From positions 12,049 through 76,048 of the forward strand of contig PFBI01000006.1 in assembly GCA_002773395.1 (NCBI GenBank): a DNA stretch of 64,000 bases, in the 5' to 3' direction. Made by a program: the position numbers and the translations under genes. Shown here piece by piece: positions 3,948 to 45,988 of the stretch (positions are counted from its first letter, which is position 1; every line of letters starts with the position of its first letter). The stretch is from Candidatus Kaiserbacteria bacterium CG10_big_fil_rev_8_21_14_0_10_47_16 (lineage in GTDB: Bacteria > Patescibacteriota > Minisyncoccia > Phycocordibacterales > UBA918). Below the pieces are notes generated by a model. That model was not told the origin of the DNA and made no database searches. It saw only the letters and a program-made list of their open reading frames with translations.

Positions 3948-5705
3948 ATGAGTGAACAGATTTCTAACATTGAGAAAAAGCGTCATACACTCGCCCACCT
4001 TTTGGCGGCAGCGGTTTTGAAAGACTATCCGCACGCACTTCTCACGATCGGTCCTGCTATCGAGAATGGTTTCTATTACGATATTGATTTTTCTGCGGGC
4101 GCAGCGCCCGGAGACGACGATCTAAAAAGTATCCAAAAAAACATGAAGAAGCTGCTCTCTTCATGGAAGGAATTTACACACAAGGAAGTATCTGCTGCTG
4201 ATGCGCGTGAAGTATTTGCAGGAAATGACTTCAAGATTGAACTCATCAATGAGCTTGAGGAAAAAGGAGAAACAATCACACTTTATACGGTAGGCGACTT
4301 TACTGACCTTTGCCGAGGAGGACATTCGGAAACTCCGGCAACTGATATTGATGCCGATGCATTTAAACTCACCTCAATTGCGGGTGCATACTGGCGTGGG
4401 AGCGAAAAGAATCCAATGCTTACCCGTATCTACGGCGTCGCATTTGATACAAAGGAAGAACTTGCTGCGTACGAAACACAGCTTGAAGAAGCGAAGAAGC
4501 GTGATCATAAGAAGCTTGGAGGTGAACTTGGACTCTTTACTATTTCGCCGCTTATTGGCGCCGGCCTCCCACTCCTTCAACCAAAGGGTGCACTCATCCG
4601 TCGTGAGATTGAAGAGTATCTATGGGATCTACATAAAGATAAAGAATACGACCGCGTATGGACACCACATATTGCCCGAGAGGCGCTCTATGAGACAAGT
4701 GGTCACGCAGCTAAATTTGGTGACGAGCTTTTCCGTGTGAAAGGCAAAGAAGATGAGTTTATCCTCAAGCCAATGAACTGTCCGCATCACATGCAGATTT
4801 TTGCAGACAATCAATTCTCATATCGTGATATGCCGATACGATATTTTGAACCTGCCACCGTATACCGCGATGAAAAGAGCGGCCAGTTGGGAGGTCTTAC
4901 TCGCGTACGCGCTATTACACAAGATGATGGACACCTCTTCTGTCGTGTAGAACAAATTACCGAGGAAGTTTCAACGATCGTTGGTATCATTCGTGAGTTT
5001 TACGCGACGATGGGTATGCTTGAGGGTTACCATGTACAGCTTTCGGTACGTGATGGAGAAGATAAGTATTTAGGAAGTGACGCAGTATGGGAACGTGCTG
5101 AAAAGGCACTTGATGATGCTGCAAAGGCAAATAATCTTAACTATACGCGTGTTGAGGGCGAGGCGGCATTCTATGGACCAAAGCTTGACTTCATGTTCAC
5201 TGATGCAATCGGACGAGAGTGGCAACTTGCAACCATTCAGTGTGACTTCAATCTTCCTGAACGATTCAACCTTTCTTTTATTAATGAGAAAGGTGAAAAA
5301 GAGCAGCCAGTGGTTATCCACCGTGCAATCTCAGGTTCACTCGAGCGCTTTATGGGGGTCATGATTGAACATTTTGCAGGCAACTTCCCACTCTGGCTTT
5401 CACCGGAACAAATCACTATTATCCCTGTTTCTGATGCTCATAATGAGTACGCACAGCAGGTATACGATGGCCTCAAGGCTGTTGGTATCCGTGTATCATT
5501 CGATGATTCTAAAGAATCAATGGGTAAGAAGATACGGAATGCAAAGAAAGGTAAACTCCCCTACTTTGCAGTTATTGGAGATAAGGAAGTTGAAAATAAA
5601 ACAGTGACTCTTGAATCACGAAATGGTGAATCAAAAGAAATGACAACGTCAGAACTCGGTAACCATTTGCTTACTGAAATTGAAATGAAGGCATTGCCGA
5701 AGTAA
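3948..5705 (+). CDS. thrS: threonine--tRNA ligase (short form lacking the N-terminal TGS domain)
   Basis: HTLAHLLAAAV...GPAIENGFYYDIDF (editing domain), class II motifs, HRAISGSLERFMGVMIEHFAGNFPLWLSP. Confidence 0.9.
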   Translation: MSEQISNIEKKRHTLAHLLAAAVLKDYPHALLTIGPAIENGFYYDIDFSAGAAPGDDDLKSIQKNMKKLLSSWKEFTHKEVSAADAREVFAGNDFKIELINELEEKGETITLYTVGDFTDLCRGGHSETPATDIDADAFKLTSIAGAYWRGSEKNPMLTRIYGVAFDTKEELAAYETQLEEAKKRDHKKLGGELGLFTISPLIGAGLPLLQPKGALIRREIEEYLWDLHKDKEYDRVWTPHIAREALYETSGHAAKFGDELFRVKGKEDEFILKPMNCPHHMQIFADNQFSYRDMPIRYFEPATVYRDEKSGQLGGLTRVRAITQDDGHLFCRVEQITEEVSTIVGIIREFYATMGMLEGYHVQLSVRDGEDKYLGSDAVWERAEKALDDAAKANNLNYTRVEGEAAFYGPKLDFMFTDAIGREWQLATIQCDFNLPERFNLSFINEKGEKEQPVVIHRAISGSLERFMGVMIEHFAGNFPLWLSPEQITIIPVSDAHNEYAQQVYDGLKAVGIRVSFDDSKESMGKKIRNAKKGKLPYFAVIGDKEVENKTVTLESRNGESKEMTTSELGNHLLTEIEMKALPK

Positions 5706-5713
5706 GGGTTGGC

Positions 5714-5757
5714 GGGCACGAAAAAAGCCAGACGGATGTCTGGCTTTTTTCGTGCTC
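5714..5757. terminator. bidirectional intrinsic terminator; 18-bp perfect stem gcacgaaaaaagccagac/gtctggcttttttcgtgc
   Basis: Long perfect palindrome containing A and T tracts, placed between convergent thrS(+) and the large surface-protein gene(-). Confidence 0.7.
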
Positions 5758-5815
5758 ATTTGAGCGTTGCGGCGGGACTCACAATTATTACTGGAGACTT
5801 TCGGGTCCAGACAGC

Positions 5816-8800
5816 TTACGCTGTGAGAAGTGCTGCGAGGCGCTCTTTGTTGATTACCATCCAACCGTTTTCAGTTGGGAACATTGCCTTTGCCTTCGTG
5901 ATCACATGATCAAGCATGGTAAGACGTTGTTCAAGTGGTGCATCCTGATCAGCGACGTAACTGAGTGCGTCGGCTGAAAGAAGTACACGTGATGCATGTG
6001 CTCGATTTTCAATTGTCGATGCAGCATCCGCTACTTCTTCTTGCACCATTACCGGTGCTCCGGTAATCGGTTCTACTGCTGCAATCGGAAGATTAAACGG
6101 AATACTTGAGTCGGCCGTCACTTCAGAAGCAACCGTTGATGTGGCGACAGGGGTTGGAATATGCTGCGCTGCAGATACTCCTTTCCCTGCTGTTGCAAAA
6201 CGTCCTTTCTTCACTACGAAGAAGTATGCGATACCGACTCCCCATAGAGCGAGGAGTGCATAGAATACTGAGGTAAGGAATGGTCCTGCATCGAATCCTG
6301 TGTATGGCACACGTACGAGCTGTACGCCGGCCACGAGTGGATCCTGTGTTCGAACGGTTGTAACAACAACATTGTTATCATCATCAACACGTACCTCTAC
6401 ACGACAGGTGTCAGTGTCACCTTTCTTTCCGTACGCAGTAAGCGTATATTCAGTATCTTCGTCTGGTCGGACAGAAATACTGTCACGTTCAGGATCTTCG
6501 TTGTCTCCATTGTCGGTATCAACGAGAGTCTTTCCATGATCGTCACGAAGACGGATGTCCTCAGTGTCGTCATTGTCCCAACTGAGCGTAATACGATCGC
6601 CGTCGTTAATACGATCATCAGAGACTTCGAGATCACATCGTACGTTACCAGAATCCTTTACATTAACTGATGTTGAACAAGTCACGCTATCAGTATTGTT
6701 TGAAGCGGTAAGGCGGTATGTCTTATTGTCGTACGCGTAGAGTGTTACGGATCCATCTTGAGCAACGAGTCCAAGACCGTTGTCAATAGAAACGCGCGTT
6801 GCATCAGTTGTGTTCCATCGGAGTTCAAAGGAATCTCCCTCATCAACACTTGAAGGTGTTGCTGTAAAGTAATCACATGAGAGATTACTTTGCGGTGGGG
6901 TATCCTGCACGTTTACCGATGTTGAACACGTTACGGTATTCGTATTATTTGATGCAGTGAGTACGTATGTCTTACTGGCAGTACCGGTAAGGGTAACTGA
7001 ACCGTCAGCTGCAACGAGTCCAATACCATTGTTGATTGATACAGAGTTTGCATCAGTTGTGTTCCAGATAAGTTGGAATTGATTACCCTGTTGTACAGTC
7101 GATGGTGATGTGTAGAACTGGTCACAACTGAGTGAACTTTGTGGTGGCGTATTCTTAATCTTTACTGATGTTGAACATGATACCGTTCCCGTACTATTGG
7201 TTGCAGTAAGGGTGTAGGTCGTATCGTGATTTACTGCAAGAGATACTGATCCGTCCTGTGGGACGAGTCCTGTTCCTTGGTTGATTGAAACTTGCGTTGC
7301 GCCGGTTGTATTCCATGAAAGTTGGAATGCCTCACCTGCTTCAACGAAGCTTGGACTTGCTTGGAAGAAATCACATGAGAGTGGATTTTCAACTGGAATA
7401 TCTTGCACCTTTACGCTTGTTGTACATGAAACAATGCTTGACGCATTTGAGGCAGTAAGTACAAACGAGGTGTTCTTGGTTACGGTAAGCGCGATAGAAC
7501 CGTCCTTAGGAACAAGTCCAACACCGTTGTTAACAGTCACCTGTGTTGCCCCAGTTGTACCCCACGTAAGTTGGAAGGCTTCGCCAGAACCAACAGTACC
7601 AGGATTCGCTTGGAAGAAGTCACATGAAATCGGATTTTCCTCTGGGATGTCCTGTACTTTTATATTCGTCACACATGACACAATACTCGAACTGTTTGAA
7701 GCGGTGAGTACGAACGATGTATCGTTCGTCACGGTAAGAGCGATTGATCCATCTTGTGGCACAAGTCCGACACCATTATTGATGTTTACTTGTGTTGCAC
7801 CAGTCGTCCCCCACGTAAGTTGGAAGGCTTCGCCTTTCTTTACGATATTTGGATTCGCCTGAAAGAAATCACAAGAAATCGGTTCGTCTACAACTACCGT
7901 TTCAACTTTCACATTTGTCGTACATGACACGATGCTTGAGCTGTTTGACGCAGTGAGTACAAATGAAGTGTCTTGATTGACGGTAAGTGCAACCGATCCG
8001 TCCTGTGGTACAAGACCGATACCATTATTAATGGTTACCTGTGTACCACCAGTTGTACCCCACGTAAGTTGGAATGCCTCACCTTTCTTTACAATACTCG
8101 GGTTTGCTTGGAAGAAGTCACACGAGAGTGGGTTCTCGACAGGAATGTCTTGTACGTGCACGGTCGATGTACACGATACGATACTCGAAGCATTAGATGC
8201 GGTAAGCACGTACGTTTTGTCAGCTTGCACGGTAAGTGCAACCGATCCATCTGCTGGTACAAGACCAACACCGTTGTTGATGTTTACCTGTGTCGCTCCG
8301 GTCGTTGCCCACGTAAGTTGGAATGCTTCACCCTTTCCTACTGTTGAAGGATTCGCTTGGAAGAAATCACATGAGAGTGGATTTTCCTCTGGAATATCTT
8401 CTACATGTACCGTTGTCGTACACGACACAATACTTGAAGCATTTGATGCCGTAAGGATAAATGACTTATCAGCTTGCACTGAAAGTGCCACCGATCCGTT
8501 TTTCGGTACAAGACCAACACCGTTATTGATGTTTACCTGCGTCGCTCCGGTTGTTGCCCACGTAAGTTGGAATGCCTCACCTTTGCCTACAGTGCTTGGG
8601 TTTGCTTGGAAGAAGTCACATGAAAGTGGAGTTTCTACAGGAATATCCTGCACCTTCACATTTGTGGCACACGAAACCGTTCCCGTGCTATTCGATGCGG
8701 TAAGGATAAAGGACGTATCTTGATTTACAGAAAGCGCTGCCGAACCATTCTTTGGAACGAGGCCTACGCCGTTATTGATTGATACTGTGGTAGCACCTGT

Positions 8801-9673
8801 TGTGCCCCATGTAAGTTGAAATGCTTCACCTTTCTTCACGATACTTGGACTTGCTTGGAAGAAGTCACATGAAAGTGGTGTTTGCTGTGGTGGCTGTTGG
8901 TTTACATTGATCTGTACCGTACACGTATCACTGCCTCCTTGTCCGTATGCAGTAAGGGTGTATGACTGTGAGTGATCAACGTATACGCTACTTGAACCGT
9001 TCTTTGGAACAAGTCCGAGTCCTGGATTAATAGATACTGAAGTTGCGTATGAAGTTCCCCATGTAAGTGTTACGTTTGCGCCGCCAGCGGGAACTGTTGT
9101 GTTACTTGCAGTAAAGAAGTCACAGTATGCGGGCTGTGGAGTGTAGTGGTAGTCGTTGTAGTACGTGTAGTCGTAATAGGTGTAGTCGTTGTATGTGTAG
9201 TAGTCGTAGTAATCGTAATAGTCGTAGTTGTAGTATTGGTAGTCGGTGTAGTAGTAGTCGGTGTAACCGTAGTCGTATGAATAGTCGTTGTACCCGTAAT
9301 CATACGAGTAATCGTTATACCCGTAATCGTAGGAATAATCATCGTAGCCACCACAGCCATAACAGCTGTCGCCACCGACGTACCCGCCATTTCCATAATT
9401 ATACGAGTAGTCGTTATACCCGTAATCATACGAATAGTCGTTGTACCCGTAGTCGTATGAGTAGTCATAGTATCCTCCACAGCTGTAACAGCTGTCGCCA
9501 CCGACGTAGCCACCCCCATAGTCATAGGAATAGTCATCGTAGTATTGAGCCTCTGCTGTTGCAGGGACGAGCGTAAGATCATCAGTGATCTGTGATACTG
9601 AGACAAGACCAAACGCAAAAACAGCAGTCGCGAAGACTCCCGTAAGGATTGAGATTTTAATAATAGTGTTCAT
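5816..9673 (-). CDS. giant cell-surface repeat protein: signal peptide, Tyr/Asp/Gly-rich low-complexity region, eleven ~83-aa Cys-bracketed Ig-like tandem repeats, VPYTG motif + TM helix + KKGR, then a ~130-aa C-terminal tail
   Basis: The ORF is open from 9829, but the real start is probably MNTIIKISILTGVFATAVFAFGLVSV (ATG at 9673), since the Tat-protein terminator lies upstream. The repeat consensus is PLSCDFFQANPS.V.KGEAFQLTW.TTGATQV.INNGVGLVP.DGS.AL.V..D.SF.LTASN.SSIVSC.T.V.V.DIP.EN. Confidence 0.85.
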   Translation of the reverse strand: MNTIIKISILTGVFATAVFAFGLVSVSQITDDLTLVPATAEAQYYDDYSYDYGGGYVGGDSCYSCGGYYDYSYDYGYNDYSYDYGYNDYSYNYGNGGYVGGDSCYGCGGYDDYSYDYGYNDYSYDYGYNDYSYDYGYTDYYYTDYQYYNYDYYDYYDYYTYNDYTYYDYTYYNDYHYTPQPAYCDFFTASNTTVPAGGANVTLTWGTSYATSVSINPGLGLVPKNGSSSVYVDHSQSYTLTAYGQGGSDTCTVQINVNQQPPQQTPLSCDFFQASPSIVKKGEAFQLTWGTTGATTVSINNGVGLVPKNGSAALSVNQDTSFILTASNSTGTVSCATNVKVQDIPVETPLSCDFFQANPSTVGKGEAFQLTWATTGATQVNINNGVGLVPKNGSVALSVQADKSFILTASNASSIVSCTTTVHVEDIPEENPLSCDFFQANPSTVGKGEAFQLTWATTGATQVNINNGVGLVPADGSVALTVQADKTYVLTASNASSIVSCTSTVHVQDIPVENPLSCDFFQANPSIVKKGEAFQLTWGTTGGTQVTINNGIGLVPQDGSVALTVNQDTSFVLTASNSSSIVSCTTNVKVETVVVDEPISCDFFQANPNIVKKGEAFQLTWGTTGATQVNINNGVGLVPQDGSIALTVTNDTSFVLTASNSSSIVSCVTNIKVQDIPEENPISCDFFQANPGTVGSGEAFQLTWGTTGATQVTVNNGVGLVPKDGSIALTVTKNTSFVLTASNASSIVSCTTSVKVQDIPVENPLSCDFFQASPSFVEAGEAFQLSWNTTGATQVSINQGTGLVPQDGSVSLAVNHDTTYTLTATNSTGTVSCSTSVKIKNTPPQSSLSCDQFYTSPSTVQQGNQFQLIWNTTDANSVSINNGIGLVAADGSVTLTGTASKTYVLTASNNTNTVTCSTSVNVQDTPPQSNLSCDYFTATPSSVDEGDSFELRWNTTDATRVSIDNGLGLVAQDGSVTLYAYDNKTYRLTASNNTDSVTCSTSVNVKDSGNVRCDLEVSDDRINDGDRITLSWDNDDTEDIRLRDDHGKTLVDTDNGDNEDPERDSISVRPDEDTEYTLTAYGKKGDTDTCRVEVRVDDDNNVVVTTVRTQDPLVAGVQLVRVPYTGFDAGPFLTSVFYALLALWGVGIAYFFVVKKGRFATAGKGVSAAQHIPTPVATSTVASEVTADSSIPFNLPIAAVEPITGAPVMVQEEVADAASTIENRAHASRVLLSADALSYVADQDAPLEQRLTMLDHVITKAKAMFPTENGWMVINKERLAALLTA
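6335..9124 (-). repeat. tandem array of ~249-bp coding repeats (eleven 83-aa domains); the central units are near-identical at the DNA level
   Basis: Repeats 3-7 encode almost identical peptides. The antisense and alternate-frame ORFs at 7281-7862, 7977-8723 and 7973-8347 show the same periodicity. Confidence 0.85.
9125..9544 (-). repeat. low-complexity coding DNA for a Tyr/Asp/Gly/Ser/Asn-rich segment (YDYSYDYGYNDYSY units, with an internal ~45-aa duplication containing CxxC pairs)
   Basis: Translation reads YYDDYSYDYGGGYVGGDSCYSCGGYYDYSYDYGYNDYSYDYGYNDYSY... The alternate-frame ORFs at 9070-9618(-) and 9127-9576(+) are composition artefacts. Confidence 0.8.
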
Positions 9674-9784
9674 AGAATAATTAATATAACGATTAGTACT
9701 ACACTGGATGACGACTATCATGCCAGATGATGAAGGTGAATCGAGTTCACCGCCAACATCAATAATGATGTAAGAAAATAGGTT

Positions 9785-9822
9785 TCTGGTGGCGCGATGC
9801 TTTCGCAACGCGCCACCAGTTA
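9785..9822 (-). terminator. intrinsic terminator after the Tat-signal gene (stem tggtggcgcg/cgcgccacca, then a T-rich run on the minus strand)
   Basis: 10-bp perfect stem, followed on the minus strand by tattttctt. It separates the three-gene cassette from the giant gene. Confidence 0.55.
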
Positions 9823-9825
9823 CCT

Positions 9826-10335
9826 TCAACAGGCATCTCCCTTGCTCGGTTCACACCGACATGGGAGAGGAGCGCCGTAGCGCGCAAAGGACCAATTGCC
9901 ACACACGAGTGGCTTTATGATCCGGTATTGAACACCCGTCTCATCGTTGACGTACCAGACGGCAGCGATGCGGGAAGCCTTGGACTTCCATTTCGACGGC
10001 ATTGCTACCGTTTCCTTGGCGACCCAATGCTTTTTGCGAGTGAAGACCATGGTGCCTACTGGGTCACCGTCACGTAGTTCATACGTGTCGTGACCCTTGG
10101 GATGGTGGGCGACTGCTGCAGATATGCGCGGACGCATATCTGCAGGGATACCCGCCAATTCCATGGCTTGGTCGAGGGTTCCCTTGAAAGGGTTCCCTCC
10201 ACCATTTGTCCAGAGGAAGGTGCCCTTGTCGAGGGTACCTACCCCCGCATGGTCATCTGCGGCAAACGCAAACCTTGGGAGGAATGCAACTGCCGCGATG
10301 CCAGCGAGAAGCTGACGTCGAGTTGGTTGCATCAC
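9826..10335 (-). CDS. secreted protein with a twin-arginine (Tat) signal peptide and C-terminal 4-Cys cluster; function unknown
   Basis: MMQPTRRQLLAGIAAVAFLPRFAFA-ADD, with RRxLL and an AxA cleavage site. SD AGGAAAGGAAAGG upstream. Local GC about 57%. Confidence 0.6.
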   Translation of the reverse strand: MMQPTRRQLLAGIAAVAFLPRFAFAADDHAGVGTLDKGTFLWTNGGGNPFKGTLDQAMELAGIPADMRPRISAAVAHHPKGHDTYELRDGDPVGTMVFTRKKHWVAKETVAMPSKWKSKASRIAAVWYVNDETGVQYRIIKPLVCGNWSFARYGAPLPCRCEPSKGDAC

Positions 10336-11258
10336 CTTTCCTTTCCTGCGTTACCGGGAACGATGGCAACAACCAAAACCGGATCTCTCTGGTTTCGGCC
10401 GCCGCCGTTCTTCACGTAGTTGTAGATGCTATCCGTGCACATAACACGTGCCTCGGCAGCCTTCTTCTGGTGCGCGATGATGTCCCAAGGGACTTGCACG
10501 CAGAGCAAGGTTTCGGAATCGATGCGCGAAGCGTCGATCTCGATCACCTCGTGCCCCTGGTTGTTACCCTTGTAGATTACGTCCTTATCCTCGCCGTTTC
10601 GGGTGAGGAAGAGGGTGACAGGTGCATTCACTACGCGAACGTCACCAGTGTTGGTGCCGTCGCGCAGATCAGGGCCGTATTCGTCAGCATTACGGTCGCC
10701 GACAATGCGGTCGACGGTCGGTGTCTGCCGAGGCAAAAATGCCCCTACAAAAGCCGACCCTTCGAGTGAGTTGCGGTCGGAGTTTGCACCGGATGGTACG
10801 AAATCCTGACGATCGTCGCTTTCGTAGTCATCACGGTAGGAGGCCGGACGAATGTCCGAACCCGACCGTCTAACGGCGACTGTGCGGCGTTCAACCTGAA
10901 CGCCGCTACCGGCACCGTAGTAGCCGGACCGCTGCTGACGACCGTAGTTTTGGCCACGGTCATAGCGTCGTTCGGTCACGATGCCGTTTTGGCTGAGAAC
11001 AGCCTGACGACACCATTCACGGGGATTACCCCGCGAGCGGTCACGTCGAGCGCGATACTCACAGTCCTCGATGGCTCGCGCCATCTGGGGAGTGATCTGT
11101 ATCGAGTCACCTTCACGGTGGTAGCCGCCGGATTCAGCACGCATCTCGCGATGCATACCTCCTCCGGAACGAATAGGTTCGTACTCGGAACTCACCTGAG
11201 TACCAGCACACGCCGTGAGCAACAGTGCGCCCACGGCCAGAATCGTTACTTTTAACAT
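10332..11258 (-). CDS. lipoprotein (lipobox LLTAC) with an R/Y/G/D-rich N-terminal region; function unknown
   Basis: MLKVTILAVGALLLTAC signal II. SD AAGGAGAAG 5 nt upstream. 4-nt overlap with the downstream gene. Confidence 0.6.
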   Translation of the reverse strand: MLKVTILAVGALLLTACAGTQVSSEYEPIRSGGGMHREMRAESGGYHREGDSIQITPQMARAIEDCEYRARRDRSRGNPREWCRQAVLSQNGIVTERRYDRGQNYGRQQRSGYYGAGSGVQVERRTVAVRRSGSDIRPASYRDDYESDDRQDFVPSGANSDRNSLEGSAFVGAFLPRQTPTVDRIVGDRNADEYGPDLRDGTNTGDVRVVNAPVTLFLTRNGEDKDVIYKGNNQGHEVIEIDASRIDSETLLCVQVPWDIIAHQKKAAEARVMCTDSIYNYVKNGGGRNQRDPVLVVAIVPGNAGKER

Positions 11259-11279
11259 GGATCTTCTCCTTGAAGTTGA

Positions 11280-11825
11280 TCAGCGCCGCGGGCGCGGCTG
11301 ATGTTGCTGTTGCGGGCGCGGCTGAGGCCGTCGCTGTTGCTGCCGCCGATATTGAGGCGGTGGCGGTTGGATACGATAGTATTGTTGCTGCCGATACTGT
11401 TGGCCTCCGCCGTAGCGTTGACCATTCCCGTATTGACCGCCACCATAACCTTGTTGACCGTAACCGTACTGACCACCGCCGTAACGACGTTGACCATAAC
11501 CCTGTTGGCCGCCATGGTGGCGACCTTGGGATATTTGTCGGCCAATTCGCATCTTACAATCGTACAAGATGTCATCAAACGCTGGATGAGCATGGTGTGC
11601 GCCCTGCGTTCTTTCGTCAACGCACTGCCACACCATTGCTCTTCCGCCATCTGGATGACCTCGGCCTCGAGATTGGTTGCTGCATCCACCGAGGACGCAA
11701 GCAAACAACCACATACCACGATCGATGAGGTATATTTCTCCTCGATCAAGCTCAGCCTTTGCGGGTTGGGCTACACTCGCCATCGCAATGAAAGCGACGA
11801 CGCAGAACGCAAATAGTCGCTTCAT
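11280..11825 (-). CDS. secreted protein with a Gly/Gln/Tyr/Arg/Pro-rich low-complexity C-terminus
   Basis: Signal peptide MKRLFAFCVVAFIAMASVAQPAKA. C-terminus GYGQRRYGGGQYGYGQQGYGGGQYGNGQRYGGGQQYRQQQYY...PQYRRQQQRRPQPRPQQ. SD AAGGAG 8 nt upstream. Confidence 0.6.
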   Translation of the reverse strand: MKRLFAFCVVAFIAMASVAQPAKAELDRGEIYLIDRGMWLFACVLGGCSNQSRGRGHPDGGRAMVWQCVDERTQGAHHAHPAFDDILYDCKMRIGRQISQGRHHGGQQGYGQRRYGGGQYGYGQQGYGGGQYGNGQRYGGGQQYRQQQYYRIQPPPPQYRRQQQRRPQPRPQQQHQPRPRR

Positions 11826-12158
11826 TACTTAGGCTCCTTTTTCCTGTTGAAGCCGTGTCTTGCACGGCATTGTTAAAGTTCACCTCCCGTCGCACAAAAA
11901 ATCATGCGTGGAGCTCTTTGTTTAGAATAATTTTGTATAACACAATACAAAACACACGCTCTATTCTAAAAAAAGAGCTACCTACATGTACATTTTCCCC
12001 ACCACAGAGAACAATTTGATTAGGGTAATTCTACACCAAACTATTGTATATGTCAAGTATTTGTCTCTCTTTTCTTTCTGTGAGCACTCTTAAAATACAG
12101 CTTAATATAAGCCTATAAATAGTATATTGTTATTGAAAATCTAGACAATCCTGCGGAA

Positions 12159-13127
12159 TTATCGCAAAAGATCCATGATGAGATGATGAACAAGCTCTCT
12201 GTGTGAGGCTCCGACAGCGGTCATTGCCTTCGGGAAAAGTGATTCTTCAGTGAGTCCTGGCAGTGTATTTACTTCGAGAAAATAAATTCCATCATCGGCA
12301 ATCATAAAATCTGATCGAGAGTATTGCGCGAGATCAAGTGTTTCGTGGACGAGTCGTGCAATACGTTCCATCTCTTTCTTTTCGGTATGAGTAAATCGTC
12401 CCGGACACACTTCTTCTGTCTCCCCTGTGTATTTCACATCTGCAGAAAAGAAATCTGATTTTTGTGGTGGAATAATTTCAATTGCAGGAAGTGCGTACAA
12501 CTCTTCACCGCGAAAACGATTGAGTACTCCGCATGTCGCTTCTTTTCCAACAATTCTTTTTTCTACGAGAACTTGATCATAAATATTAAGAGCATCGCTG
12601 AGTGCACTTGCAAGGAGTGTTGGATTTTTTACCATCATGGTTCCAACGGATGATCCTGATGAAATTGGTTTAATAACGTACTCAGGACCAAACATGTCGG
12701 CAATACTTTCGCTCAGTCCATGCAAATTTCGTTTCGAGTCTCGCGTTACTACCATGTGTGGAGGCATCTTGAGTCCAAAATCACGTAAGTGATCCTTGGT
12801 AAGTACTTTATTCATTGCAATGCTTGATGCGTAGGAACGACTTCCAGTGAACGGGACGCCCGCGCGCTCGAGAATACGTTGTAGCTTGCCGTCTTCACCG
12901 AATGCGCCGTGGAGAGCGATAAAGACGGCGTCGACACTTTGGAGGATTTGCTCAGGATATCGTGAGACACCACGATGCAACCACTCACCTGTCTTGGTGA
13001 TGGTTATATCAAGTGGTTCAAAGAGATCTCGGCTAAGCGAGGCCAGTACTGCATCACCAGTTTTCATTGAAACTTCGTATTCTTCACTGGGGCCTCCGCG
13101 GAGTACCGCAACGCGTATCTTACTCAT
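12159..13127 (-). CDS. ddl: D-alanine--D-alanine ligase
   Basis: IRVAVLRGGPSEEYEVS...ALHGAFGEDGKLQRILERAGVPFTGS...; ATP-grasp fold, 322 aa. Confidence 0.9.
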   Translation of the reverse strand: MSKIRVAVLRGGPSEEYEVSMKTGDAVLASLSRDLFEPLDITITKTGEWLHRGVSRYPEQILQSVDAVFIALHGAFGEDGKLQRILERAGVPFTGSRSYASSIAMNKVLTKDHLRDFGLKMPPHMVVTRDSKRNLHGLSESIADMFGPEYVIKPISSGSSVGTMMVKNPTLLASALSDALNIYDQVLVEKRIVGKEATCGVLNRFRGEELYALPAIEIIPPQKSDFFSADVKYTGETEEVCPGRFTHTEKKEMERIARLVHETLDLAQYSRSDFMIADDGIYFLEVNTLPGLTEESLFPKAMTAVGASHRELVHHLIMDLLR

Positions 13128-35133: not shown

Positions 35134-36636
35134 ATGAAAATTATAGGACGCCTACATCGACGTTATGGGAAACGCTTTATTTGGAGCGTTGCTGGAGCTG
35201 CACTCGTTATCATCATTATTATTGTGGTCGCTATTAAGAGTAGCGAAAATACCGCATCAATTGCTACAAATGTACCGCCAACAGTGGTGGTTTCAAGTGT
35301 TCGTGATATTTCAGGTAAAAATACTATCAATTTGATTGGTTCTGTCGAAGCTGTCGACGAAGTACGTCTTGAGACAGAGGCATCAGGCCGCATTACCAGC
35401 GTTGGTGTTGGACTTGGCGATTCAGTAGCTGCCGGACAAATCATTGCGCAAATTGAGAACGCGAGCGAATACGCTGCACTTCTCCAAGCGCAAGGATCCT
35501 ACGAAGCAGCAGTTGCTTCTTCACGTTCTACAAGTGTAAGTCTGATCAACGCACAAAGCGATGCAATCAACACCTACCGAAGTAGCTACTCAAAAACAAA
35601 CGACGTCATTCTTAATACAATCGATAGCCTCTTTTCAAATCCAAAAGCAATAACGCCAGGTGTCCGTATTCAGACTGGTAGTAATGTCGATATCCTCAAC
35701 AGCGAACGTTACGCTTTCAATACCATGCTCTCTGAGTGGCAGAAGCAGAGTGTTACTCTCACGACAAGCAGTGATCTCCATGCAGCGCTTCGTGAAGCAC
35801 GTGCAAACGTCACTCGCGTACAGAAGATGATCGATATCTTTATTCCGTATCTCGCATCAGAAGACGCGGGAACATTTACCGAAACACAACTCAGTACCAT
35901 CCGCTCAAACTTCGCATCGTCAGATACCGTTATTACTTCTCTCCTCAATTCAATTAATAGCGCCGAGGATACACTTTCACGCGCAGAACTCAGTAGCTCT
36001 GGAGGCGTTGTGTCTGCAGCTGACGCCCAAGTGAAGCAAGCACTCGGAAGTCTCAAGGCCGCTGAAGCAAACTATGCAAAAACAGTCATTCGGACTTCAA
36101 TTGCAGGTACGGTGAACTCCCTCTCAGTAAAAACTGGTGACTACGTATCAACATTCGCACCGGTCGCTATCGTGGCAAATAATAATGCGCTTGAAATCAC
36201 CACCTACGTTGGTGCATCAGATCGTGACCGTATCGCGGTTGGACAGAAAGTTATTATTGCAAAGAAATATACTGGCGTGGTAACGCAGGTTGCACCGGCC
36301 GTTGATCCTGTAACGAAAAAAGTTGAAGTAAAAATCCAAGCAGAGACAGCCGATATCTCAAACGGCGATACTGTCGACATTAGTATTACAACAACCAACG
36401 AAACAGCCGTCACCGTCGGTCCGATTCTCGTACCTATTACTGCAGTGAAGTTTAATGCTGAAAACGGTGACGTCTTCTCTGTTGTCGAAGGTCAACTCGT
36501 TTCTCATCCGGTGGTGATTGGGGATGTTCGCGGCGCCTTTGTTGAGATTCTTGATGGTATTACCTTCGATGATACGATCGTACTCGATGCTCGTGGTCTT
36601 AATGCTGGAGAACGTGTAGAAGCAATACTCCCCTAG
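35134..36636 (+). CDS. efflux RND transporter periplasmic adaptor subunit (HlyD/MFP family)
   Basis: N-terminal TM, GSVEAVDEVRLETEASGRITSV..GDSVAAGQIIAQI, coiled-coil segment, VIRTSIAGTVNSLSVKTGDYV. Confidence 0.8.
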   Translation: MKIIGRLHRRYGKRFIWSVAGAALVIIIIIVVAIKSSENTASIATNVPPTVVVSSVRDISGKNTINLIGSVEAVDEVRLETEASGRITSVGVGLGDSVAAGQIIAQIENASEYAALLQAQGSYEAAVASSRSTSVSLINAQSDAINTYRSSYSKTNDVILNTIDSLFSNPKAITPGVRIQTGSNVDILNSERYAFNTMLSEWQKQSVTLTTSSDLHAALREARANVTRVQKMIDIFIPYLASEDAGTFTETQLSTIRSNFASSDTVITSLLNSINSAEDTLSRAELSSSGGVVSAADAQVKQALGSLKAAEANYAKTVIRTSIAGTVNSLSVKTGDYVSTFAPVAIVANNNALEITTYVGASDRDRIAVGQKVIIAKKYTGVVTQVAPAVDPVTKKVEVKIQAETADISNGDTVDISITTTNETAVTVGPILVPITAVKFNAENGDVFSVVEGQLVSHPVVIGDVRGAFVEILDGITFDDTIVLDARGLNAGERVEAILP

Positions 36637-36647
36637 CCATATTCTGT

Positions 36648-39600
36648 ATGTATAAACTCTGGCAATTTTTTATCCTCAACAACCGTTTCAGCTACCTCAT
36701 GATGGTTGCGTTAACTGGTTTTGGTATTCTCTCCCTCTTTCTTATTCCGAAAGAATCAGCTCCCGAGGTACAAATTCCAATCGGCGTGGTGAGTGTCCTC
36801 CTTCCTGGAGCACCTGCAGCAGACATCGAATCCCTCGTCACAAATGAGATTGAGCGAGGTATCGCCGGCTCACTTGAGAACGTAAAATCAATTACCTCCA
36901 CCTCACGAGAGAGTGTGTCTGTGGTGACCGTTGAGTTTGAAGACAGTGCAGATATTGATGTTGCGATTCAAGATCTTAAAGATAAAATCGACACCATCAA
37001 ACCCAATCTTCCAACGGATGCTGAAGATCCTGTAGTGTCGGAAGTAAATTTTGTCGATCAACCAGTCATGACGGTTGCGCTTTCTGCCAATCTTACTGAC
37101 GCTGAGCTCACTGCACTTACCGATACACTCGAAGTTGAAGTTGAGAACGTATCGGGCGTTTCTCGTATGGAAAAAAGCGGAGTGCGTGATCGAGAAGTAA
37201 CCGTTGTGGCCGACCAAGCGTCTCTCCAACGTTATGACATGAGCGTGATTGATATTTTAAATGGTATCCGCTCTGCAAACAGCACCTTCCCTGTCGGACA
37301 AATTGAGAACGACGGTGTGAACTACAACATTGCGTTTGAAGGTGATATTGCTGATAGCACCGAAATAGCCGGCATCGTAATCGGTATTCGTGGTGGTCAA
37401 CCAGTCTACGTCCGCGATGTTGCCAAGATTGATGATGGACTCGGTCCGACCGTTACCCTCTCTCGCCTCTCTGTCGACGGAAAGCCGTCAGTACACGCTG
37501 CATCCTTTAGTGTGTACAAACAGCGTGGTGGCGATATCACCCGCATCACCGGCGCAGTGAACGACCGTCTGAGTGAGCTTCAAAAGCCCGGTGAACTTCT
37601 TGATGGTATTACCGTCGTCACTGTCCTCGATAGCGGAAAGGATATCAAAACAGACCTCACAAGGCTCTCTCGATCAGGTGTACAAACGGTTATCCTCGTT
37701 ATTATTGTGCTGGTTCTTGCCATTGGTTGGCGAGAAGGATTTGTTGCAGGAAGCGCAATCCCTCTTTCGTTCCTCATTGGATTCATCGGCCTTTATCTCT
37801 CAGGTAATACCATAAACTTCGTAAGCCTTTTTGCGCTCATTCTTGCCATCGGTATTCTTGTCGATTCGGCAATTGTGATGGTTGAAGGAATCAACCGCCG
37901 TATGAAGGAAGACCCCCATATTGATAAATCAAAAGCTGCACTCGAGACTATTCGTGAGTTTAGTACTCCGCTCATTTCTGGAACACTCACGACGGTTGCT
38001 ATGTTCTCTGGACTCTTCCTCATCTCTGGAGTCACCGGCCAATTCATTGGAGCGATTCCGTTTACGATTAACTTTATCCTTTTTGCCTCACTTCTTGTTG
38101 CACTTGGATTTGTACCGCTCATCGCATCGACAGTGCTCAGACGACGAAGTGAGACAAACTTTGAGAAAAGACAAATTGCTTATTCTCACAAACTTGAAAC
38201 GTGGTACCGCTCAAAGCTTTCGCTCATCATCGGAAATAAAAAGAACGAACGGAAGTTTCTTTGGATCATTGGTATCGCACTCATTGTTGCGCTCGCGCTT
38301 CCAATCACCGGTGTCGTAAAGGTGATCTTCTTCGAACAGTCCGATATTGATTGGATTTATGCAGAAGTAGAACTCCCACAAGGGAGCACACGCGCTGAGA
38401 CTGATGTCGCCGTACGACGTGTTGAGGAGTATCTCTACCAAGAGCCTGACGTTGCATCCTTTGTAACGACAGTTGGTCAAGCTGCTGTGTATGGTGGGAA
38501 CGGTGGTACCACCGATGAAAAGTTCGGCAACATGTTCATCACTCTTAAACCTGACCGCAAAGATACCAGTACCGATGTCGTGGAGCGACTTCGAGGTACC
38601 TTTTCTGAAATTCGTGATGTAACCGTTACCGTAGACCAGCCAAGCGATGGGCCACCAACAGGATCCGAACTCGGGTACCGTTTCCTCGGAGACGACCTTG
38701 CTGAACTCACTGAGCTTGCAAATAAAGGTGCGATTATTCTGAAGGATATTTCTGGCACCACCAACGTCGTCACGAGTACTAACAACAACAGTACCGAATT
38801 TGTACTCACACTCAATAAACAGAAAGCGTCCGCACTCGGTCTTTCACCGCAACTTATTTCTCAGACACTTCGTGCCGCAGTGTACGGTATGACCGCAACA
38901 TCACTCACGACACTCGATTCTGATATCGACGTTATTGTAAAACTCGACCTCACACAAAGTGGCGCACTCACCTCTGATGCAACGAATATTGCAAACCTTG
39001 AGACACTCAAGAACATTCAATTCATTACACCATCTGGCGAAACCGTTCTTCTCTCTTCCTTTGCGGACGTATCGCTCCGTGAATCAAGTAACGTTATTTC
39101 ACACGACGAACAACGCCGCGTCGTCTCACTTTCTGGTGGTATTACTGCTGATGGCAATATTGCGACCATCAATGCTGAATTCGAGAAGCGCTTGCGTGAA
39201 GAAATAAACATTCCAAGTGATGTCACGATTGAGATTGGTGGACAAACAGAGGAGTCCAACAAAGCATTCATGGAAATGTTCCTTGCACTTATTGTAGGAG
39301 TCATTCTCATGCTCGCTGTATTGGTATTGCAGTTCAATTCATTCCGTCACACATTCTACGTACTTTCAATTCTTCCATTCTCACTCATTGGTATCATGGC
39401 AGGACTCGCGATTACCCAACTCCCTCTTTCCTTCCCATCTATCATGGGATTCATCGCGCTCTCAGGTATTGTGGTAAATAACTCAATCCTCCTCATCGAT
39501 ATGATGAACGAGAATCGTCGCAAATACCCAGACCGTGACCTCCTTGAAAACATCATGAATGCCGCATCTTCACGACTCCGCCCGATTCTCCTTACCACCC

Positions 39601-39752
39601 TCACCACCGTGATCGGTATGATCCCGCTTACGTATGCGTCAGACCTTTGGTCACCGCTTGCGTGGGCAATTATGTTCGGACTCACCTTCTCAGTGGTCAT
39701 TACCCTTGTCCTGATTCCTGTGATTTACCACCGTAACCCAGGCAAGATTTAG
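36648..39752 (+). CDS. efflux RND transporter permease (AcrB/HAE1-like)
   Basis: 1034 aa, 12-TM RND layout. C-terminus FIALSGIVVNNSILLIDMMNENRRKYPDRDLLENIMNAASSRLRPILLTTLTTVIGMIPL. Confidence 0.9.
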   Translation: MYKLWQFFILNNRFSYLMMVALTGFGILSLFLIPKESAPEVQIPIGVVSVLLPGAPAADIESLVTNEIERGIAGSLENVKSITSTSRESVSVVTVEFEDSADIDVAIQDLKDKIDTIKPNLPTDAEDPVVSEVNFVDQPVMTVALSANLTDAELTALTDTLEVEVENVSGVSRMEKSGVRDREVTVVADQASLQRYDMSVIDILNGIRSANSTFPVGQIENDGVNYNIAFEGDIADSTEIAGIVIGIRGGQPVYVRDVAKIDDGLGPTVTLSRLSVDGKPSVHAASFSVYKQRGGDITRITGAVNDRLSELQKPGELLDGITVVTVLDSGKDIKTDLTRLSRSGVQTVILVIIVLVLAIGWREGFVAGSAIPLSFLIGFIGLYLSGNTINFVSLFALILAIGILVDSAIVMVEGINRRMKEDPHIDKSKAALETIREFSTPLISGTLTTVAMFSGLFLISGVTGQFIGAIPFTINFILFASLLVALGFVPLIASTVLRRRSETNFEKRQIAYSHKLETWYRSKLSLIIGNKKNERKFLWIIGIALIVALALPITGVVKVIFFEQSDIDWIYAEVELPQGSTRAETDVAVRRVEEYLYQEPDVASFVTTVGQAAVYGGNGGTTDEKFGNMFITLKPDRKDTSTDVVERLRGTFSEIRDVTVTVDQPSDGPPTGSELGYRFLGDDLAELTELANKGAIILKDISGTTNVVTSTNNNSTEFVLTLNKQKASALGLSPQLISQTLRAAVYGMTATSLTTLDSDIDVIVKLDLTQSGALTSDATNIANLETLKNIQFITPSGETVLLSSFADVSLRESSNVISHDEQRRVVSLSGGITADGNIATINAEFEKRLREEINIPSDVTIEIGGQTEESNKAFMEMFLALIVGVILMLAVLVLQFNSFRHTFYVLSILPFSLIGIMAGLAITQLPLSFPSIMGFIALSGIVVNNSILLIDMMNENRRKYPDRDLLENIMNAASSRLRPILLTTLTTVIGMIPLTYASDLWSPLAWAIMFGLTFSVVITLVLIPVIYHRNPGKI

Positions 39753-43402: not shown

Positions 43403-44326
43403 ATGATGCACGACTTAATTATCATCGGTGGAGGCCCTGCAGGTATTGCTGCCGGCGTCTACGCATCTCGCAAGCAACTCAAGACACAATTTGTTACGAA
43501 AGAATGGGGCGGACAAAGTATTGTCTCTCCCGATATTCAAAACTGGATTGGAACACCACATATTTCTGGTGACGATCTCGCAAAAAACCTTGAGGCTCAC
43601 CTTCGCGAATATGCAGCTGATATAGTTGAGATCAAAAGTGGATCACTCGCGACGGCAGTTACAAAGACCGACGCCGGCTTCTCCGTAACACTTGAAGACG
43701 GATCTACGTCAGAAGCAAAGGCAGTACTGATTGCCGCAGGTTCAAATCGTCGAAAACTCGATGTTCCAGGTGCCGAAGAATTTGATAACAAAGGACTTAC
43801 CTACTGCGCATCATGCGATGGTCCCCTCTTCTCAGGACAAGATGTTGTGGTTGTCGGGGGTGGTAATGCTGGATTCGAAACCGCCGCCCAACTTCTTGCG
43901 TATACAAAGAGCGTGACCCTTCTCCACCGTGGCGATCAATTTAAAGCTGACCCTGTAACCGTAGAAAAAGTCCTCGCCCACAAAAATATGACCGCCGTAT
44001 TAAACGCTACTCCAACTGAAGTCACTGGCGATAAATTTGTAAATGGTCTCACATACACCGATGCAGAAGGTACTGAACACACACTTGCCGTCAATGGCGT
44101 ATTCGTCGAAATTGGAATGATTCCAAACACAGACTTCGTCGCAAATACTCTTAAGCTCGACGACTACAAACGAATTGAAATTGACCCATGGACACAACAA
44201 ACATCTGTTCCTGGTATTTGGGCTGCTGGTGATTGTACAAATATTAAATACCACCAAAACAATATCTCTGCAGGAGATGCGGTTCGTGCACTCGAAGATA
44301 TCTACATCAACCTACACGCCAAGTAG
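43403..44326 (+). CDS. trxB: thioredoxin-disulfide reductase
   Basis: IIIGGGPAGIAAGVYASR (FAD), CASCDG redox-active site, VVVVGGGNAGFETA (NADPH). Confidence 0.85.
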   Translation: MMHDLIIIGGGPAGIAAGVYASRKQLKTQFVTKEWGGQSIVSPDIQNWIGTPHISGDDLAKNLEAHLREYAADIVEIKSGSLATAVTKTDAGFSVTLEDGSTSEAKAVLIAAGSNRRKLDVPGAEEFDNKGLTYCASCDGPLFSGQDVVVVGGGNAGFETAAQLLAYTKSVTLLHRGDQFKADPVTVEKVLAHKNMTAVLNATPTEVTGDKFVNGLTYTDAEGTEHTLAVNGVFVEIGMIPNTDFVANTLKLDDYKRIEIDPWTQQTSVPGIWAAGDCTNIKYHQNNISAGDAVRALEDIYINLHAK

Positions 44327-45277: not shown

Positions 45278-45988
45278 ATGGAGAAAAATCCTTTTGCCGT
45301 CCCTATCGCAATAATCATCGCTGCCGGCCTTCTTGCGGGAGCAATCTACTTCAGTGGAAAACAAAATTCTGCGAATACTGCCAATGACGGTGATTCTTCA
45401 CCGAGTGAAGAAATTACCATCCCTCCAGTGACTGAAGCGGATCACATCTTAGGAAATCCAAATGCTCCAATCATGATTGTTGAGTATTCGGATTATGATT
45501 GTCCGTTCTGTAAAAATTTCCATGAGACAATGAAAAAAATCATGGATGACTATGGAGCAGGCGGCAAGGTTGCATGGGTCTATCGCTATTTCCCACTCCA
45601 ACAACTTCACCCGAATGCGCCTGAGCTTGCAGTCTCTGCCGAATGTGTCGCGGAACTCGGAGGAAACGATGCGTTCTGGAAATTCAGTGATCTCGTCTTT
45701 AGTGAACGAGATACCAACGAACAGACCGATATGACACGCGTACCTGAGTTTGTTGCAGCAGCCGGCGTCGACACTACAGCATTCCAAGAATGTCTCGATA
45801 GTGGTCGCTACAAATCTCTCGTAGAACAGCAGTTCAATGACGCTGTTGCGGCTGGCGGACGTGGTACTCCATACCCAATCGTCGTTGTCGGGGATCAGAA
45901 AGGCACGATCCAAGGAGCACAGCCATACTCAGTAGTAAAACAAATGATTGATACCCTTATCGCACAACTCGATAACTCAGGTAACTAA
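45278..45988 (+). CDS. DsbA-like thiol:disulfide oxidoreductase, membrane-anchored
   Basis: N-terminal TM; thioredoxin-fold CPFC active site (EYSDYDCPFCKNFH). Confidence 0.75.
   Translation: MEKNPFAVPIAIIIAAGLLAGAIYFSGKQNSANTANDGDSSPSEEITIPPVTEADHILGNPNAPIMIVEYSDYDCPFCKNFHETMKKIMDDYGAGGKVAWVYRYFPLQQLHPNAPELAVSAECVAELGGNDAFWKFSDLVFSERDTNEQTDMTRVPEFVAAAGVDTTAFQECLDSGRYKSLVEQQFNDAVAAGGRGTPYPIVVVGDQKGTIQGAQPYSVVKQMIDTLIAQLDNSGN

Follow-up and report, generated by a model that had tools for sequence, protein, structure and literature searches.

What role does a run of 140 amino acids, two fifths of them tyrosine, play at the outer end of a bacterial surface protein? The question is raised by a gene of the ultra-small groundwater organism Candidatus Kaiserbacteria bacterium CG10_big_fil_rev_8_21_14_0_10_47_16 (Paceibacteria, Candidate Phyla Radiation, CPR), which lies in the 64,000 nucleotides of contig PFBI01000006.1 analysed here (the window; positions are counted from its first letter). 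An initial annotation of this DNA had pointed to a low-complexity (LC) segment with paired CxxC motifs at the N-terminus of a surface protein and had suggested adhesion, metal or mineral binding, or tyrosine cross-linking. Our analysis indicates that the segment is a translated module kept by selection, within a family of anchored surface proteins. We tentatively read it, with a confidence that stays somewhat below even, as a flexible, polyanionic, tyrosine-based adhesive tip with disulfide-forming cysteine pairs at the distal end of a type-I surface protein, by analogy with other tyrosine-rich and disordered binding segments. The gene and the parts of the LC module are the following.

5816 to 9673, minus strand: complete gene of the 1285-residue surface protein, an open reading frame (ORF) with its stop codon at 5816-5818, identical to NCN52214.1 (GW943_00155).
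9125 to 9544, minus strand: Tyr/Asp/Gly LC module of 140 amino acids (aa), aa 44-183, YYDDYSYDYGGGYVGGDSCYSCGGYYDYSYDYGYNDYSYDYGYN..., from the translation.
9263 to 9514, minus strand: two tandem 42-codon copies, aa 54-95 and 96-137, found by Tandem Repeats Finder with a period of 126 bp.
9470 to 9514, minus strand: Cys-pair unit 1, GGYVGGDSCYSCGGY, aa 54-68, homologous to the family motif G-D/S-S/T-G-C-G-x-C-G-G.
9344 to 9388, minus strand: Cys-pair unit 2, GGYVGGDSCYGCGGY, aa 96-110, the second GGYVGGDSCY(S/G)CGGY unit.
9125 to 9262, minus strand: Tyr/Asp/Thr/Asn tail, aa 138-183, TDYYYTDYQYYNYDYYDYYDYYTYNDYTYYDYTYYNDYHYTPQPAY, the densest part of the module with up to 57% Tyr per 40 aa.

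The exact peptide described in the initial annotation is present in the minus-strand translation, and its estimate of about 40% Tyr agrees with a count of 58 tyrosines (41.4%). These are accompanied by 25 Asp (17.9%), 20 Gly, 10 Ser, 9 Asn, 6 Thr and 4 Cys, while Lys, Arg, Glu, Leu, Ile, Met, Phe and Trp are completely absent; because the 25 Asp are not balanced by any Lys or Arg, the net charge comes to about -25. Outside the module, the protein contains 18 Tyr in 1102 aa (1.6%), and the binomial tail for 58 of 140 at this frequency is 7e-65. As had been described, units of the YDYGYNDYSY type are broken twice by GGYVGGDSCY(S/G)CGGY, and each 42-codon copy consists of one Cys-pair unit followed by three DYSYDYGYN-type units. 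Five exact copies of the 9-aa unit DYSYDYGYN (27 bp) are present, the window has five matches to the degenerate DNA pattern for DYxYDYGxxDY against none expected, and Tandem Repeats Finder reports tandem periods of 6, 9, 15, 27 and 126 bp. In a six-frame scan of 1.27 Mb (the window and 80 loci of relatives), no further long ORF reached 25% Tyr per 40 aa, the sole exception being an 83-aa chance piece.

The pattern of substitutions between the two 42-codon copies shows which frame is read. The 24 nucleotide differences fall on 20 third, four first and no second codon positions (P = 7e-7), and 38 of the 42 residues are identical although 18 of those 38 differ in their codon. When the same differences are read in the other two frames, the ratios of non-synonymous to synonymous changes are 20:1 and 17:4. 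No two of the five exact DYSYDYGYN units have the same DNA sequence. Near-saturated synonymous sites in two-fold codons, together with a peptide that was kept, indicate an old repeat conserved at the protein level rather than fresh slippage. In addition, the exact 1285-aa protein was found on five contigs from separate assemblies, including JGI 3300025018 and GCA_009991995.1, and two loci that were fetched have no mismatch in the gene and DNA 100% identical to the window across 15.7 kb. Only the LC frame links the family-conserved signal peptide to the family-conserved immunoglobulin (Ig)-like domains, and in relatives the same order of parts is found in single ORFs. On this sequence evidence, the module is real, protein-coding and maintained by selection in the minus-strand frame. 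The possibility of a misassembly artefact or of an interrupted frame, which the initial annotation had left in view, is contradicted by an intact frame and by identical DNA in independent assemblies.

The protein starts at the ATG at 9673 (MNTIIKISILTGVFATAVFAFG...) and not at the TTG at 9829 that opens the mechanical ORF 5816-9829; we take this ATG as the true start because its MNTIIK... N-terminus is shared with the homologs P0009 (MNTIIKH...), P0006, P0020 and P0218. The remaining parts of the protein are listed here.

9545 to 9673, minus strand: signal peptide with a long c-region, aa 1-43, MNTIIKISILTGVFATAVFAFGLVSVSQITDDLTLVPATAEA followed by Q, with a basic n-region, a 20-aa hydrophobic core and an AxA site.
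6629 to 9124, minus strand: ten tandem Ig-like domains of 83-85 aa with two conserved Cys each (CDFF...VSC), aa 184-1015, forming the stalk, from the repeat table.
6374 to 6628, minus strand: acidic membrane-proximal beta domain, about aa 1016-1100, conserved in the family and part of the 270-aa query used below.
6296 to 6310, minus strand: VPYTG, an LPXTG-like motif, aa 1122-1126, immediately before the transmembrane (TM) helix; [LIVMA]PYTG is present in 153 of the 153 representatives used.
6212 to 6280, minus strand: TM helix FLTSVFYALLALWGVGIAYFFVV, aa 1132-1154, followed by KKGR, from the sequence.
5819 to 6211, minus strand: cytoplasmic tail, aa 1155-1285, ending ...ENRAHASRVLLSADAL...FPTENGWMVINKERLAALLTA, conserved in homologs and matching no Pfam or NCBIfam model.

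The presence of a signal peptide, an Ig stalk and a TM anchor in one ORF defines a type-I anchored, bead-on-a-string protein with the LC module distal to the membrane, as expected for the surface protein of the initial annotation. The placement of the module at the N-terminus stands only with a correction, since it begins after a signal/pro region of 43 aa. Signal peptidase is predicted from sequence to cut after AEA (AEA↓Q, the arrow marking the site), and an AxA site directly precedes the LC or the Cys pair in many family members. The mature protein would then start with the module, carried on the outermost end of a stalk of 10-11 Ig-like domains. From the typical size of an Ig domain we estimate that this stalk is roughly 40-50 nm long. 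An AlphaFold2 model of three Ig-like repeats is all-beta with a mean predicted local distance difference test (pLDDT) score of 82.9, and a Foldseek search of the PDB with this model retrieved the tandem Ig modules of PTPdelta, OPCML, titin and contactin (E about 3e-9, probability 1.00). Matches of the full protein and its relatives to RDR6_2nd, HZS_alpha, WZC_N and phosphatidylserine decarboxylase in Pfam/NCBIfam were rejected as sub-threshold or inflated by repeats. The surface protein has no L-x-x-C lipobox after its signal peptide and no type IV pilin signal of the G↓FTLIE kind.

Public records treat this gene unevenly. GenBank PIR84262.1 (COU16_01530; 1007 aa) begins at residue 279, at an internal GTG; aa 1-278 (window 8839-9673), which comprise signal peptide, LC module and Ig1 (the first Ig domain), are therefore missing from that record and from UniRef. 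The full 1285 aa are called in NCN52214.1 and in IMG, where one further entry of 781 aa is shorter at the N-terminus, probably cut at a contig end. Two overlapping frames are open, as the initial annotation had observed: an alternate frame at 9070-9618 on the minus strand (182 aa) and an antisense frame at 9127-9576 on the plus strand (149 aa). Neither is called in any record of a collection of 15 billion proteins. The accompanying warning that gene callers may go wrong here thus proved correct for PIR84262.1, truncated by 278 residues, but not for the records that carry the full protein, nor in the sense of a wrong frame being called.

To define the family we used the C-terminal 270 aa (aa 1016-1285) as a composition-neutral handle. 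An exhaustive phmmer search with this region retrieved 766 cluster representatives at E<=1e-3, 199 of them at E<=1e-30, and most listed relatives are 35-51% identical to it across the whole 270 aa. Members share an AxA signal peptide, an LC segment with a Cys pair, tandem Ig domains, an acidic domain, [LIVM]PYTG[FL], a TM helix and a cytoplasmic domain. The window protein has the C-terminal homology, the PYTG motif, the tandem two-Cys Ig domains and the AxA site with a Gly-flanked Cys-pair LC, the four features used to recognise members. Scans of the full protein and of its relatives showed that no Pfam or NCBIfam model covers this signal peptide-LC-Ig-PYTG-TM family, and our literature search found nothing on it or on Tyr-rich segments in Patescibacteria. 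Its members have so far been annotated as 'hypothetical protein' (for example NCN52214.1, PIR84262.1, KTR10_03530, LR017_01305 and R3B60_03105).

Family counts were made on 153 representatives carrying the [LIVMA]PYTG anchor motif. A Cys pair is present in the N-terminal LC of about half of them, as G-C-C-[GD] in 43 and as G-C-G-x-C-G-[GD] in 31, typically 3-6 residues past the conserved AxA (for example A↓WGSTCGSCGGG and A↓YGDSGCGDCGGG). In the window protein the motif reads GDSCYSCGG, Tyr standing in for Gly, and has been duplicated. The paired CxxC motifs reported earlier are genuine and are the only part of the module homologous across the family. An aromatic residue often precedes the pair (A↓WGSTCGSC, A↓YGDSGCGDC, A↓WDGG..GGCCGG), and the CC and CxxC forms are interchangeable.

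The initial annotation had proposed looking for segments of similar composition in related surface proteins, and such segments exist. A Tyr-rich extracellular LC was found in 17 of the 153 representatives (11%; 18 members with the window protein), and the distribution of Tyr content is bimodal, Tyr-rich members having at least 28% Tyr per 40 aa and all others at most 17%. These members are modular: 2-6 Cys pairs are often set among their aromatic-acidic repeats, and a P/Y/T-rich tail often comes after these; their repeat units include DYSYDYGYN (window), YDYGGG, YDYGST, YDYGDYY, YDYGSDGY and FDYGIGAAEVIDDGCCE. The tetrapeptide [FY]DYG is the most frequent one in 8 of the 18 Tyr-rich members, which had been chosen without reference to that motif. 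Like the window protein, the Tyr-rich sub-class (P0004, P0194, P0218/L093, P0142, P0096, P0119, L124, L164, L176 and others) carries its Tyr/Asp/Gly(Ser) module, with the [FY]DYG core, after the signal peptide; Cys pairs are often interleaved and the mature N-terminus is often A↓QY.... Unlike the window protein, it has mostly vicinal CC rather than CxxC, mostly 2-4 highly charged Ig domains, and a P/Y/T-rich tail. P0008, P0194 and P0218 are Tyr-rich and have no Cys pair at all.

The nearest relatives of the window protein (P0092, P0093 and P0094) have a nearly identical signal peptide and only a 15-40-aa Gly/Asp LC with one Cys pair, in contrast to the 140-aa Tyr-rich expansion, the duplicated Cys-pair unit and the replacement of Gly by Tyr seen here. 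Judged from these sequences, the Tyr-rich expansion around the ancestral Cys-pair motif is specific to the lineage of the window protein, which also differs from the rest of the family in its unusually long stalk of ten near-identical Ig repeats. A neighbour-joining tree of the membrane-proximal region placed 15 Tyr-rich members together and the window protein, P0218 and P0008 elsewhere, which suggests that the Tyr-rich module arose at least three times. The ortholog pair L093/P0218 illustrates how such modules change: identity reaches about 90% in the signal-peptide region, about 88% in Ig1 and about 94% in the tail, while the LC differs by a 33-aa indel and by unit changes, the YDYGST core being kept and whole repeats being gained or lost.

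A prediction of disorder, also proposed in the initial annotation, gave a consistent picture. In a single-sequence AlphaFold2 run the LC module had pLDDT values of 22-31 against 52-70 for the adjoining Ig1, with nearly no secondary structure apart from two short strands at its C-terminal end. The module is probably intrinsically disordered, with no fixed structure predicted by this model.

Beyond the family, the DYxYDYGxxDY DNA pattern matched eight IMG/VR contigs and at least 119 metagenome stretches. The matches include further family members (L093, L124, with GGCISC after the repeats, L164 and L176), and many others are unrelated small secreted proteins or lipoproteins (L105, L095, L136, L160, L188 and the L118 group). 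Tyr/Asp/Gly tracts with up to 53% Tyr per 60 aa are present in unrelated proteins of organisms with 26% to 51% GC (L105, L095, L136, L160, L188, the L118/L130 group, L081 and L087), and a few IMG/VR viral contigs carry them too. The data suggest a wider, unstudied class of extracytoplasmic Tyr-rich segments. The statement that this is not a common bacterial LC type therefore needs a qualification: among extracytoplasmic proteins of uncultivated bacteria the type is rare, yet it recurs, in about 11% of the family and in the metagenome stretches counted above. A homology search with the LC alone gave 1741 word-sharing candidates, none of which scored. The composition correction of HMMER removes such segments, and profile searches are consequently blind to the module.

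Several points speak for an adhesive tip: the topology, the selection on the frame, the family Cys-pair motif, the repeated evolution of the Tyr/Asp/Gly repeat at the same position, the predicted disorder, and a DsbA-like gene elsewhere in the window.

45278 to 45988, plus strand: membrane-anchored DsbA-like thiol-disulfide oxidoreductase with CPFC (Pfam Thioredoxin_4 3.9e-24, DSBA 5.7e-15) and an N-terminal TM helix.

This protein is likely to catalyse extracytoplasmic disulfides, those of the Cys pairs and Ig domains among them, its link to the LC module being inferred. As an adhesive tip, the module may act as a brush whose 58 Tyr make many weak contacts by pi-stacking, CH-pi interactions and hydrogen bonds, giving multivalent adhesion of low specificity to glycans or proteins on the surface of another cell. 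The Asp side chains would probably keep the brush soluble and allow bridging by divalent cations. The CxxC pairs, which are Gly-flanked, ancestral and found family-wide, most likely form disulfides through the DsbA-like oxidase, and these could either close small loops or join neighbouring tips; the Tyr-rich repeats would be a lineage-specific expansion around this ancestral motif. Two precedents make the proposal plausible: Tyr-enriched minimal libraries yield potent binders (PMC5405424), and an anammox surface-layer protein adheres and phase-separates through its disordered domains (PMC7482068).

Several considerations count against this proposal. The function is deduced from composition, position and analogy, for a protein known here from its sequence, and the organism has no known host or partner. 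A charge of about -25 should repel the typical anionic cell surface unless cations bridge the two. The conserved [FY]DYG and the alternating Y-x-Y could mean ordered beta structure or a specific ligand site, and the disorder call comes from AlphaFold on a single sequence, a kind of run in which repeat folds can be missed. The AEA↓Q cleavage is a rule-based prediction, and the tree behind the three or more origins uses a short region and carries no support values.

The alternatives draw on much of the same evidence. One, possible though doubtful, is that the tips pair with one another by Tyr-Tyr stacking and are locked by interchain disulfides, possibly with dityrosine, into an outer mesh resembling a surface layer (S-layer), so that the protein would not be a host adhesin. 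Interchain knots made of Cys pairs are known from the IgG hinge (CPPC) and from collagen III (GPCCG). Within the family CC and CxxC swap freely, always in flexible Gly-rich sequence near the mature N-terminus, and interchain knots therefore fit better than a redox or metal site that depends on spacing. The 2-6 Cys pairs of Tyr-rich members keep register with their aromatic repeats, the window encodes a DsbA-like oxidase, Tyr-rich CotC/CotU form high-mass assemblies in spore coats that contain dityrosine and disulfide links (PMC7944565), and the disordered domains of the anammox surface-layer protein bind one another (PMC7482068). Self-association would nevertheless have to overcome a repulsion of about -25 per module without cations, the window ORFs include no peroxidase, laccase or SodA-type partner, and the Tyr-rich members P0008, P0194 and P0218 have no Cys pair. 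Moreover, the fast divergence of the LC between orthologs is typical of a changing partner rather than of a self-lattice. Another alternative, which we judge improbable, is that the module, through its alternating Asp/Ser/Asn and Tyr side chains and its thiol pairs, serves as a ligand for Ca2+, Fe or soft metals, or attaches to carbonate or iron-oxide surfaces in the CO2-rich, mineral-laden aquifer from which the genome comes. The module has 18% Asp, no basic residue and four Cys arranged as two pairs, and D-Y-S-Y-D-Y-G sets D/S/D on one face of an extended strand. Both CC and CxxC are classic arrangements of thiolate ligands, and the name CG10_big_fil_rev_8_21_14 belongs to the sample series of Crystal Geyser, Utah; a geyser aquifer of this kind is described in PMC6792436. 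Against metal binding, inspection showed that the spacings of RTX GGxGxD and DxDxDG are not kept and Pfam gave no match; the LC has no His, 41% Tyr is atypical of mineral-binding proteins built on Asp or phospho-Ser, and most family members have a plain Gly/Asp or Ser-rich LC in place of the Tyr/Asp repeats.

Dense modification offers a further explanation, a very improbable one, in which O-glycosylated Tyr, Ser and Thr, or sulfated Asp-flanked Tyr, would make the module a polyanionic or mucin-like brush that owes its properties to the modification. Some S-layer glycoproteins of Gram-positive bacteria carry O-glycosylated tyrosine. The DY dipeptide recurs all along the LC, relatives have P/T/Y-rich tails after their repeats, and disordered surface regions are often glycosylated, as discussed for the anammox protein (PMC7482068); yet the neighbours are housekeeping genes and orphan ORFs, with no adjacent glycosyltransferase or sulfotransferase. 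That the module has no function at all, being a tolerated spacer left by neutral slippage of a (GTAGTC)n-like tract, or an artefact of assembly or frame, has the lowest probability of all and is barely credible. Its tandem periods from 6 to 126 bp, the openness of all frames and the variable LC length between orthologs elsewhere in the family would agree with such an origin, but against it stand third-position differences near saturation beside 38 of 42 conserved residues and no second-position change, an identical sequence in five contigs, and a position in frame between the conserved signal peptide and the conserved Ig domains. The same composition and [FY]DYG core also emerged independently in other family members.

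Comparison with known systems places the module among Tyr-rich extracellular LC segments, a kind that is already known, in a family that is uncharacterised. CotC, of the Bacillus subtilis outer spore coat, is rich in Tyr together with Asp. CotC and CotU resemble the window module in being extracytoplasmic, extreme in Tyr and part of a cross-linked surface layer with disulfide and dityrosine links; they assemble into high-mass forms, for which dityrosine has been proposed (PMC7944565). However, they are small, Lys-rich, specific to sporulation and assembled by the mother cell, whereas the LC has no basic residues, sits on the Ig stalk of a 1285-aa protein of a CPR bacterium that does not form spores, and has no peroxidase nearby. 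In mussel foot and diatom Tyr-rich proteins, too, the adhesive end of a fibre carries repetitive Tyr-rich segments that are secreted (PMC4220933), but with at least 10-15 mol% Tyr and abundant Lys these proteins are cationic and depend on the conversion of Tyr to Dopa. The Dopa/mussel-foot class was rejected on the absence of Lys and Arg, a charge of about -25, and no tyrosinase or polyphenol oxidase among the window ORFs. The anammox protein Brosi_A1236 is a beta-rich surface protein with terminal disordered repeats that shows adhesion, self-binding and phase separation in Ca2+ buffer (PMC7482068). It differs in that its disordered domains are C-terminal and have no Cys pairs; there is no sequence relationship, and the word 'tyrosine' is absent from the main text of that paper (PMC7482068). 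Antibody complementarity-determining regions (CDRs) and minimalist binders share a Tyr-dominant alphabet with Ser, Gly and Asp, in which Tyr is the main contributor of binding energy (PMC5405424), but CDR loops are short and borne by a folded scaffold, in contrast to 140 apparently unstructured residues without dedicated diversification.

Other motif classes were considered and rejected. In the anchor, VPYTG followed by a hydrophobic helix and the basic KKGR resembles the LPXTG substrates of sortase, a comparison that does not concern the LC. The motif is not C-terminal, being followed by 131 residues of conserved cytoplasmic domain (91-331 aa in the family), unlike a sortase sorting signal; the 49 ORFs of the 64-kb window gave no Pfam match to sortase. 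FUS-like [G/S]Y[G/S] sequences have uncharged spacers and about 15-20% Tyr, against 41% Tyr and 18% Asp in a D-Y-[SGD] context here; the relative P0008 (SDYSYSGG) is nearer to that type than the window LC is. Loops of the RTX GGxGxDxUx and DxDxDG kinds had no Pfam match, and D-Y-S-Y-D-Y-G has Gly at position 7 rather than 6 and lacks the GGxGxD register. The choline-binding 'YG' repeats (CW_binding_1, units of about 20 aa) and Rhs YD repeats were both absent at E<=1 from the Pfam scan, in which the HMMER composition filter may mask a weak likeness to either, and the LC unit is 9 aa long. Thioredoxin-fold CxxC and haem CxxCH sites were discarded, as CYSCGG and CYGCGG lie in a Gly/Tyr context with no His, no predicted fold and no Pfam match.

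The surroundings of the gene are mostly housekeeping genes (ThrRS, EVE, MiaA, Ddl, UvrC, UvrA and UvrB), with orphan ORFs as well. The order UvrA-UvrC-Ddl is kept in Kaiserbacteria relatives (window 3948-13127 compared with loci L001-L024), but the surface gene, a GC-rich islet and ThrRS were not found within 10 kb beyond Ddl in relatives (80 related loci; L001-L024), and the surface gene therefore lies at a synteny breakpoint. The initial annotation had suggested tyrosine-modifying enzymes nearby as something to look for; the search was made, and the 49 window ORFs contain no tyrosinase, laccase, peroxidase or sulfotransferase. A thioredoxin-reductase-like flavoprotein is encoded at 43403-44326; with the DsbA-like gene, it is consistent with disulfides in a surface protein with many Cys. 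An HlyD-like adaptor and a full-length AcrB-type RND transporter (Pfam ACR_tran 9e-183) were also found at 35134-39752; as a CPR bacterium, the organism is presumably bounded by a single membrane.

The islet (9826-11825), 2 kb long with 55% GC against 46.7% for the window, immediately adjoins the surface gene on the upstream side. Its identity in independent assemblies shows that it is no chimera. Its three minus-strand ORFs (9826-10335, 10332-11258 and 11280-11825) have no Pfam match: the 169-aa protein has a Tat-like RRQLL signal and is an orphan with only three matches in 5.8 billion proteins; the 308-aa protein has a lipobox (LLTAC); and the third ORF, of 181 aa, has a signal peptide and a low-complexity tail of Gly/Tyr/Gln/Arg in a place where gene callers differ on strand and frame. 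Directly after the stop of the 169-aa ORF, on the minus strand, a hairpin at 9787-9818 has a perfect 9-bp stem (GGTGGCGCG...CGCGCCACC) followed by a T-rich run. From its sequence it looks like a terminator parting the islet from the surface-protein gene; a consensus terminator scan did not report it because its loop is 12 nt long.

For annotation, the lesson is that one GenBank record is short by 278 residues and that HMMER-type searches do not see the module. For biology, the context is that a large part of bacterial diversity belongs to the CPR/Patescibacteria, which are believed to live on the surface of other cells; their attachment molecules are essentially unknown beyond the type IV pili of Saccharibacteria. 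A large un-annotated family is now defined, with 766 representatives, a clear topology, a conserved N-terminal Cys-pair motif and, in about 11% of members, a repeatedly evolved Tyr/Asp/Gly module under purifying selection, and it provides testable candidates for host-contact or surface-layer components in Kaiserbacteria-like organisms, as well as a natural example of a very dense extracellular tyrosine 'sticker' sequence. A more far-reaching reading, which we regard as unlikely, is that the [FY]DYG repeats and Cys pairs form a previously undescribed, convergent 'tyrosine sticker' class of adhesion or cohesion modules in Paceibacteria, extracellular, polyanionic and placed on the tip of an Ig stalk. 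Such a module, in the presence of Ca2+ and locked by disulfides, might create a gel-like or covalently knotted contact zone that attaches ultra-small cells to their hosts. Parcubacteria-type CPR have an unknown host-attachment or S-layer-like apparatus, for which the family would, if this is true, be a leading candidate.

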